A DNA stretch of 64,000 bases from Saccostrea cucullata (GCF_032062105.1 NW_026929843.1:38440-102439), one strand, 5' to 3'. Counted from the first letter of the stretch, positions 47,417 to 47,476 are shown. Notes: generated by a model from the letters alone, not told the origin. Numbers and translations are program-made.

Positions 47417-47476
47417 AATCTGATGAAGAAGATGTAGACATGGGATTTAGTCTTTTTGATGATGATGATGAGTCAT
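47417..47476 (+). CDS. candidate exon with ribosomal P-stalk C-terminal-tail-like motif: 'ESDEEDVDMGFSLFDDDDES'
   Basis: Acceptor aatctag, donor gtacgt. Phase 1 in, 1 out. Cf. P0/P1/P2 C-terminal 'EESDDDMGFGLFD'. Confidence 0.45.

Follow-up and report, generated by a model that had tools for sequence, protein, structure and literature searches.

An acidic-hydrophobic motif resembling the ribosomal P-stalk tail in a cassette-built predicted oyster protein

A single internal exon (exon A) in the 64,000-nucleotide stretch of Saccostrea cucullata DNA analyzed here, referred to below as the window, encodes an acidic run that includes a CK2-type serine (SDEE), the spaced residues M-x-F-x-L-F, and a second acidic run. 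The reading that we favor, at slightly better than even confidence, is that exon A is a short acidic-hydrophobic linear motif in a disordered, proline-rich, lineage-restricted oyster protein (a RefSeq prediction) that is built of cassettes. Its likeness to the C-terminal tail of the ribosomal stalk proteins P0, P1, and P2 is most likely convergent and specific to the exon A copy. The likeness would exist because both sequences belong to one physical class, in which an acidic run is combined with F-x-L-F, and exon A would be the copy that drifted closest to the stalk sequence, with no kinship to the P proteins.

The borders of exon A are clean, with two bases (AA) before its first full codon and one (T) after its last, and it is in frame with its neighbors. 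It encodes residues 119 to 138 of the 641-residue RefSeq prediction XP_062594584.1, to which its peptide is identical. The acidic cluster upstream of MGF, E-S-D-E-E-D-V-D, holds S120-D-E-E, which fits S-x-x-E. When D-M-G-F-x-L-F-D was back-translated, it occurred once in the six frames of the window, compared with 0 of 100 dinucleotide shuffles, and a scan of the window for a looser pattern (acidic run plus F.x.F) returned, on the + strand, only exon A and the exon at 51170. In a single-sequence AF2 run, residues 119 to 189, motif included, were predicted as coil with pLDDT <50. FFAT, LIR, clathrin-box, EVH1, and full LFa patterns were compared with exon A and none fitted; the same was true of the canonical clathrin box, FxDxF, DPF/W, and gamma-ear motifs, compared by regular expression and by eye. 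Rfam and tRNA scans of the whole window, which is AT-rich, intron-bearing animal DNA, gave no matches. The features of the window are listed in Table 1.

Table 1. Features of the host gene and of its upstream neighbor (positions counted from the first base of the window)
Feature	Positions	Strand	Length, phase, and splice sites	Peptide and remarks
PARP4-like (vault PARP) gene	21084..38560	+		PARP catalytic, VIT, and VWA domains; acidic tail exons
First exon	43680..43721	+	42 nt; phase 0->0	EEAMDVDELCLESE; RefSeq CDS starts at ATG 43689
R-SNARE-like exon	44606..44704	+	99 nt; phase 0->0	IDDIHSKMKENVEKVLERGEKLDNLTEKSQTLM; half SNARE motif
Actin-like exon	45137..45304	+	phase 0->1	actin residues ~4-60
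Exon X	45671..45724	+	54 nt; phase 1->1	(G)AKPVLGKVLEKLSSSLE; precedes A in the model; predicted short helix
Exon A	47417..47476	+	60 nt; phase 1->1; AG acceptor, GTACGT donor	(E)SDEEDVDMGFSLFDDDDES
Exon B	47599..47633	+	35 nt; phase 1->0	(F)ELPKKQAPPKE; basic/Pro mini-exon after A
Exon T	49386..49574	+		FQKRGPTVRPPHRQNLTKVSRPPPSLPVYLPREQVLERRPPPPRGVMDDKFSESDDEDYE; proline-rich plus acidic
Exon U	49708..49776	+	69 nt; phase 1->1	KPDVLSVKPVYTRVSMAMAGGIE(G); closes cassette 1
Exon A' (sister of A)	51170..51208	+	39 nt; phase 1->1; GTGATG donor	(E)FEEEEDLFFGCF
Exon B' (sister of B)	51335..51369	+		GELSKKEPSPIT
Exon T'	54922..55029	+	phase 1->1	...KALPQPPGIRRGPPPPPMESSESEQEESYE; diverged
Exon U' (sister of U)	55164..55223	+		KPDFLSINPDYALPPEGEVK; diverged
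Cassette 3 first exon	62007..62144	+	phase 1->1	EDKPEPPPEQDELEMDDLFEELPEEPVPPPSIPARGRPPPPSTQAH; acidic D-L-F plus polyproline

The likeness of exon A to the P proteins is above shuffle expectation, yet it lies under family thresholds. A preliminary description had compared the peptide with the P0/P1/P2 tail, and this comparison stands: its nearest relatives in the PDB and in Pfam are P tails, and exon A is the nearest thing to such a tail in the window. In tblastn, human P2 ESEESDDDMGFGLFD and the window peptide ESDEEDVDMGFSLFD were identical at 11 of 15 residues (73%), D-M-G-F-x-L-F-D included. When a 41-residue peptide was searched with phmmer against all PDB sequences, the top eight matches were the C termini of P1, P0, and P2 (best E=0.19). 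The sole Pfam match of this motif peptide was Ribosomal_60s (PF00428; E=0.0044, profile positions 73 to 88 of 88), at 18.0 bits, which falls short of the gathering cutoff of 28.1 bits; a 188-residue chain scored 14 bits (E=0.073), likewise below the cutoff. The spliced window peptide matched the Pfam families Actin and Ribosomal_60s and no other. The shared features are an acidic cluster with a CK2-type serine, followed by D-M-G-F-x-L-F-D, in a disordered segment.

The P0/P1/P2 tail (SD[D/E]DMGFGLFD-COOH) is C-terminal, whereas the exon A motif is internal, keeps phase 1->1, runs on into exon B, and continues with DDDES and more exons. The second Gly of the P-tail core FGLFD is Ser in the window (FSLFD) and Asn in the S. 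cucullata paralogue XP_062586752.1 (FNLFD); the counterpart in exon A' is FGCFG, and only the ark clam Tegillarca granosa has FGLFG. The M-G pair is likewise not conserved: the paralogue has MA, the ark clam LE, and A' LF. The P-like details are not kept in the sister copies of exon A. Neither the paralogue nor A' matched Ribosomal_60s at all, and the Tegillarca motif gave E=1.2. Outside the 15- to 18-residue tail, no Pfam or PDB similarity to the N-terminal helical dimerization domain of P1/P2 or to their Ala/Gly/Pro hinge was found. Membership in the P-protein family was rejected: the score is below the Pfam cutoff, the motif is not C-terminal, the second Gly is replaced, and there is no dimerization domain. 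Capture of the last exon of an RPLP gene also seems unlikely; no stop or 3'UTR-like sequence follows LFD, and the older sisters are less P-like at M-G.

A true mimic of the stalk tail would bind, through its internal motif, the SDDDMGFGLFD pockets on eEF2, eEF1A, GCN2, or toxins, for which it could act as a decoy. The identity to human P2, the rank of P proteins as best PDB matches, the position of Ribosomal_60s as the sole Pfam match of the motif peptide and the sole match besides Actin of the spliced peptide, and the CK2-type serine upstream, as in P proteins, are all consistent with such a mimic, as is the exact FGLF kept in Tegillarca. In addition, toxins hold the tail by two anchors, its acidic cluster and FxLF (PMC3280276), and both are present in exon A. 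In an alanine scan of binding to the Shiga-like toxin SLT-1, M->A and first G->A were tolerated, which would allow the MA of the paralogue, but every residue of the FGLFD core was needed, with second G->A and D->A each giving a Kd of at least 50 uM (PMC3280276). The second Gly is thus the position at which Ala abolishes SLT-1 binding and at which the oyster copies have Ser or Asn. Deletion of the last Asp caused a >20-fold loss with the ricin A chain (PMC6162817), and the internal motif has no free C-terminal Asp. The lack of a Ribosomal_60s match in the paralogue and in A', the generic DLF type of the sibling motifs, and scores under every curated threshold also speak against mimicry. Endogenous partners may tolerate more variation than toxins do, and the Asp residues that follow may substitute for the terminal carboxylate. 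Functional stalk mimicry by exon A nevertheless appears unlikely from the sequence, and as a full account of the motif we rate it very improbable. The term “mimicking” in the preliminary description is not supported in a functional or evolutionary sense, given the internal position, the Ser or Asn at the second Gly, the unkept M-G, and the un-P-like remainder of the protein. If mimicry were true, this would be a rare animal protein that borrows the factor-recruiting peptide of the ribosome.

Alignment of the motif copies separated what is kept from what is not. The aligned stretches were ESDEEDVDMGFSLFDDDDES (window and XP_062594584), ESEEEDLDMAFNLFDDDDDDDES (paralogue XP_062586752.1), ESDEEDEDLEFGLFGDGE (Tegillarca), EFEEEEDLFFGCFGDE (A'), and DELEMDDLFEELPEE (cassette 3). 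What these copies share is the acidic runs and, at the hydrophobic positions, M/L, F, L/C, and F; the M-G pair and the x of F-x-L were not kept. Between the window and XP_062586752.1, the four hydrophobic residues M, F, L, and F did not change, nor did the acids on either side, and the G and S positions varied. The length of the GAT repeat, and hence of the Asp run, also differs between the Saccostrea copies (D4 versus D7). Identity of the exon between the two Saccostrea copies is ~70%, versus 67% over the whole aligned tail. By these figures, the motif exon is not specially protected relative to its neighbors, yet its four hydrophobic anchors survive.

Outside Saccostrea, the related sequence lies in a PARP4-like model of the ark clam, KAJ8314784.1, in which SDEEDEDLE|FGLFGDGEP is found downstream of the VWA region, at the same relative position. 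The clam motif is split by an intron (...EDEDLE|gtaaga, 1.5 kb, ttgtag|FGLFGDGEP), and since it is joined by splicing, a chance open-reading-frame artifact is unlikely and an old motif is suggested. The match covers 18 residues only, is Asp/Glu-rich, and has E=0.04 in a 64-kb search. Among 5.8 billion word-indexed proteins, tail homologues were found in Saccostrea and Tegillarca only, and a HMMER search of 1.84 billion representative proteins with the tail of the paralogue found none. Of 71 matches that keep the landmark F[VI][AS][VI][DE], PARP4-like proteins of other animals included, only that of Tegillarca had an acidic-FxLF motif. At the Tegillarca locus, a search for B-, T-, or U-like, polyproline, WH2, R-SNARE, and actin exons found none. 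Absence of the motif from related species, which had been put forward as a reason to dismiss it, applies in part: in the proteins searched, none was found beyond Saccostrea and Tegillarca, but a related motif is present in the Saccostrea paralogue and in the clam. With no tail homologue detected outside Saccostrea in these protein sets, the only evidence of constraint is a single paralogue and a single clam match of 18 residues, which is Asp/Glu-rich. That the motif and its ark-clam FGLF counterpart are a genuine internal P-stalk docking peptide, kept beside the vault-PARP locus since oysters and ark clams diverged, has in our estimation only a very slim chance of being correct. If it were, a cytosolic scaffold or a PARP4-like enzyme would engage translational GTPases or GCN2, or would sequester the ribosome-inactivating toxins that a filter feeder meets.

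The nearest upstream neighbor of the host gene on the same strand is a PARP4-like gene, with which it is phase-compatible. In the PARP4-like gene, exons for the PARP catalytic domain (21.6 to 24.1 kb), the VIT domain (24.8 to 26.5 kb), and the VWA domain (26.9 to 28.1 kb) are followed by acidic tail exons at 30521-30616, 35154-35207, 37002-37052, and 38498-38560, all of phase 0->0. A decayed LINE-type reverse transcriptase occupies 31496-33577, inside an intron of this gene. Exon A might be part of the C-terminal tail of the PARP4-like protein, in one long transcript, with the acidic tail serving for automodification or partner docking and replacing the vertebrate MINT domain; we judge this unlikely, at well under even chances. 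The exons from 30521 to 44704 are all of phase 0->0 and join in frame, although phase compatibility alone has a chance of about 1 in 3 per junction. The exon at 43680 is itself acidic; its acceptor is strong, and acidic codons (EEA) precede the RefSeq ATG in frame. In RefSeq, however, the two genes are annotated apart, the downstream one with its start at 43689. The Tegillarca model KAJ8314784.1 unites VWA, acidic tail, and FGLF motif ('...YEEESDEEDEDLEFGLFGDGEP...'); however, it is an unreviewed prediction with gaps of 6 to 7 kb before the motif exons and may fuse neighbors. Furthermore, the MVP residues that bind the MINT domain of PARP4 are reported to be conserved in vertebrates only (PMC12280208), which is in keeping with such a replacement. 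A single transcript would in any case bear on gene membership and says nothing of how the motif acts.

A search with the spliced tail peptide retrieved two S. cucullata RefSeq predictions, and a further search retrieved the host model XP_062594584.1, which was mapped exon by exon onto the window; its residues 375 to 641, including the remainder of the gene after the 62007-62144 exon, are encoded beyond the window end. In the model, half of an R-SNARE motif and a fragment from the N terminus of actin are combined with three duplicated cassettes of acidic/proline-rich exons and with a WH2-like match that is sub-threshold. Its label, “histone-lysine N-methyltransferase 2B-like”, derives from proline-rich low complexity. 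Proline makes up 13.7% of the protein, which has 4 polyproline runs and 11 PxxP matches of the SH3 type; the WH2 pattern matches once, at residue 593.

The R-SNARE-like exon scored 38.5 bits against Pfam Synaptobrevin (cutoff 26.4) but covers only profile positions 12 to 43 of 89. Its best match was VAMP4 (51%), the zero-layer Arg is kept, and AF2 predicted a helix with pLDDT of 85 to 88, the sole confident helix of the single-sequence run. A tblastn search of the window with six approximate human R-SNARE queries found no further SNARE or transmembrane exon, and the host gene lacks the full 16-layer SNARE motif and membrane anchor of a SNARE. The actin-like exon scored 35 to 37 bits against Pfam Actin, over profile positions 4 to 53 of 410, and no other actin exons were found in the window by Pfam or tblastn; the complete fold of ~375 residues is absent. 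This exon is identical to beta-actin at 38 of 57 residues, and the changes spare the D-loop block, a 17-residue run without change (P=0.004 under random placement). Beyond the window, the WH2-like segment DRQSLLQSITTGQSLKKIP fits LLxxIxxGxxLKK and matched Pfam WH2 with E=0.0015, at 18.5 bits versus a cutoff of 23.1. Unrelated pseudogene debris was rejected as the sole explanation of the SNARE and actin pieces; both are in the RefSeq CDS, with good splice sites and compatible phases. The host gene is curious in itself for joining a half SNARE motif and a piece of actin (N terminus and D-loop) to duplicated disordered cassettes.

Three tandem multi-exon cassettes, at 47.4 to 49.8 kb, 51.2 to 55.2 kb, and 62.0 kb onward, make up the remainder of the gene in the window, and their duplication is visible at the DNA level. 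Each runs from an acidic-Phe exon through a basic ELPKK mini-exon and a polyproline/acidic exon, which ends in SES(D/E)xE(D/S)YE, to a KPDxLS exon. Each also carries its own acidic-hydrophobic motif (DMGFSLFDDDD, DLFFGCF, and DDLFEE, respectively). Exon A had been described as internal and followed by a proline-rich exon; in cassette 1 it is followed by exon B and then by the proline-rich exon T (49386-49566/49574). Exon T has tandem acceptors at 49385 and 49391 and an internal donor, GTTTGT at 49567, which is used by the RefSeq model (exon 49386-49566); if this donor is passed over, the reading frame continues to ...YESL* and ends at the stop codon 49572-49574. The diverged sister exon proposed at 51170 was confirmed as exon A' (51170-51208), with usable splice sites and the same phase as A. 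Exon B and the B' region at 51325-51378 have 76% DNA identity.

Cassette 2 is partly decayed. It contains a K-like exon relic at 52882-52989 and T'', a decayed tandem copy of T' at 54557-54720 that carries a stop and belongs to a local duplication of ~318 bp. Exon A' is skipped in the RefSeq model; it is on the only open path that could be built through cassette 2 in the window, U->A'->T'->U'->62007, whereas the RefSeq-like path U->B'->T'' hits a stop. Upstream, the window has a run of five C (C5) at 45204-45208 where the RefSeq protein requires six (C6), and the actin-like exon is therefore frameshifted as assembled; the annotated frame with C5 stops near 45254, upstream of exon A. With one C restored at this run, 234 of 234 residues matched the RefSeq protein (residues 12 to 245). 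The missing C reflects an assembly error in a homopolymer or else a null allele. Together, the upstream frameshift and the broken T'' exon could mean that the gene is decaying.

These observations bring in the main rival to the linear-motif reading, namely, that exon A is a functionless stretch, a drifting low-complexity acidic sequence in a young gene that is turning over fast and is partly pseudogenized, and that the P-stalk likeness is a coincidence. The frameshift, the stop on the RefSeq-like path through cassette 2, the decayed sisters A' and T'' with the K-like relic, the variable GAT repeat, the absence of homologues outside the genus in the proteins searched, conservation of the motif exon no higher than that of its neighbors, and the patchwork of fragments of other genes all speak in its favor. 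Set against them, all four hydrophobic anchors survive in two paralogues with differences at ~33% of tail positions, the ark clam has a matching acidic-FGLF motif at the same position and spanning an intron, and the 234/234 identity after restoration of one C indicates that the frameshift may be a homopolymer error. We therefore regard absence of function as somewhat unlikely, although it is a possibility to be taken seriously.

Under the favored reading of exon A as a linear motif, M, F, L, and F of M-x-F-x-L-F would be the anchors, set between an Asp/Glu run with its CK2-type serine and a second Asp run. The motif of each cassette would be a weak docking peptide that takes up its fold as it binds a basic/hydrophobic groove on a partner, the SDEE serine would tune docking through CK2-type phosphorylation, and several copies would cooperate by avidity. 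A putative scaffold of the cytoskeleton or of trafficking is suggested, at the level of sequence, by the polyproline stretches together with the weak WH2-like match in the C-terminal part. On this ordinary reading, exon A would add a further case to the acidic-hydrophobic linear motifs of disordered proteins that are specific to one lineage, and it would serve chiefly as a caution: within a family of looser acidic-LF motifs, one copy can come to match a famous 11-residue peptide almost perfectly.

Among known systems, the closest working analogy is provided by the LFa repeats of FAM21 (WASHC2), L-F-[D/E]3-10-L-F, which bind retromer VPS35 (PMC3374753). The host protein resembles FAM21 in having multiple acidic plus Leu-Phe motifs along a predicted disordered tail, which may follow an avidity-type logic, and in a putative actin-regulator context (polyproline and, in the oyster model, the weak WH2-like match). 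In the oyster, three acidic-LF/FF motifs in the window cassettes are joined by DLMMF/DLLMM downstream in the model, and the region is predicted to be disordered. Exon A and the start of exon B, LF-DDDDES-FEL, fit LFa in part, with the first dipeptide and an acidic stretch with an embedded Ser; LFa identity was rejected because the second [LIVM]-F is missing (F-E-L instead). A regular-expression search of XP_062594584 with Ser allowed gave no full LFa match and the half motif LFDDDDES at 131. FAM21 also differs in copy number (about 21 copies versus three or four in the oyster), and its head domain and any homology to it are absent from the oyster protein.

The remark in the preliminary description that acidic plus F/LF motifs of trafficking proteins could account for the resemblance by convergence is the direction in which the evidence points. 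The N-terminal 'EDDSDEEEDFF' of VAMP4 is a CK2/PACS-1 acidic cluster, and DLL and DLF are clathrin- and AP-binding repeats. Exon A resembles the VAMP4-type cluster in having an S-D-E-E CK2-type site in an Asp/Glu run that ends in Phe, and the same oyster gene model bears the VAMP4-like half SNARE motif; the cluster precedes the SNARE motif in VAMP4, whereas it follows the SNARE motif in the oyster model. D-L-F also occurs in A' (EEEEDLFF) and in cassette 3 (DDLFEE). A precedent for a P-tail-like stretch inside a nonribosomal protein is the “P epitope” of NSPA/ZZEF1, an internal, partial likeness (GLFD/GLFE, DDLG) recognized by anti-P antibodies (PMC2150977); that match is immunological and spans only 4 residues, and the oyster match is much longer. 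On the favored reading, exon A would be a new example of a known element, the acidic-aromatic linear motif in a disordered region.

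Three tandem copies of a multi-exon cassette follow one another on the plus strand, and in each the exons are ordered acidic-Phe, basic mini-exon, polyPro/acidic, and KPDxLS (Table). The second copy is partly decayed, its polyPro/acidic (T') and KPDxLS (U') exons differ from the host RefSeq protein, XP_062594584.1, and the sole open path found through it in this window is one that uses the unannotated acidic-Phe exon A'. A local duplication divides the T exon of this cassette into T'', which carries the acceptor and a stop, and T', which keeps the proline/acidic end intact.

In the first cassette, exon T has tandem acceptors spaced 6 nt apart (49385/49391, plus strand) and, at its 3' end (49567-49574, plus strand), either an internal GTTTGT donor or read-through to ...DEDYESL*. 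Read-through would give a short isoform terminating in an acidic Y-E-S-L peptide, which is YxxPhi-like or LIR-like. The introns on either side of exon A, the acidic-Phe exon resembling the ribosomal P0/P1/P2 tail, hold tandem repeats in three copies (46463-46868) and two copies (48066-48371), and these look like a dispersed repeat family. Two further arrays that appear to be coding, with units of 24 nt (~5.7-6.3 kb) and ~93 nt (21.7-22.2 kb), are probably minisatellites rather than genes.

Table. Features of the window and their positions
Feature	Position	Strand	Remark
Tandem arrays, two, coding-looking	5693-6321 and 21744-22178		Long open frames in several frames
Non-LTR retrotransposon reverse transcriptase	31496-33577	+	Pfam RVT_1 in two halves, plus DUF6451
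Half R-SNARE motif exon	44606-44704	+	Pfam Synaptobrevin above cutoff
Actin-like exon	45137-45304	+	Actin residues ~4-60 only
C5 run	45204-45208	+	C6 needed by RefSeq protein
(CAGT/CCGT)n microsatellites; tandem repeats with units of 100-150 nt	46403-46868 and 48027-48371	+	Introns on either side of exon A
Multi-exon cassette, three tandem copies	47417-49776, 51170-55223, 62007 to beyond 64000	+	
Local tandem duplication, ~318 bp	54545-54718 and ~54860-55037	+	

The acidic tail exons of the PARP4-like gene, which lies upstream, and exon 1 of the host gene (30521-43721, plus strand) are all phase 0->0 with in-frame joins, and because they share these properties the two annotated genes could, from their exon phases, form a single transcription unit. 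The reverse transcriptase lies in sense orientation within an intron of the PARP4-like gene, the two halves of its domain being parted by one stop.

In the ark clam Tegillarca granosa (CM056596.1, locus L001), four tandem ~95-nt copies of a VIT-region exon fragment (EMGRRTVKVVGMTFDIREIECTSHKIGMK) occupy positions 12031-12402, in the intron immediately after the genuine exon. Among proteins P0034-P0120, the VIT-VWA proteins from bacteria that are homologous to the PARP4 core have in common a conserved C-terminal module (...LVALQRADGSWDLT...), which was missing from the animal tails examined in this analysis.

Within the host gene, the D-loop block of the actin-like exon is free of substitutions (17/17 identical; run P=0.004), and it may be speculated that this lone D-loop, with stretches of polyPro and a weak match of WH2 type beside it, is itself an actin-binding piece. 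The C run in the same exon shifts the frame as assembled, leading to a stop near 45254, and restoring one C brings 234/234 residues into agreement with XP_062594584.1; the run reflects an assembly error at the homopolymer or else marks a null allele. For the R-SNARE-like exon, neither further SNARE layers nor a membrane anchor was found in the whole window, and the exon is included in the RefSeq CDS despite its half motif. It retains the zero-layer Arg, and its nearest match is VAMP4 (51%).
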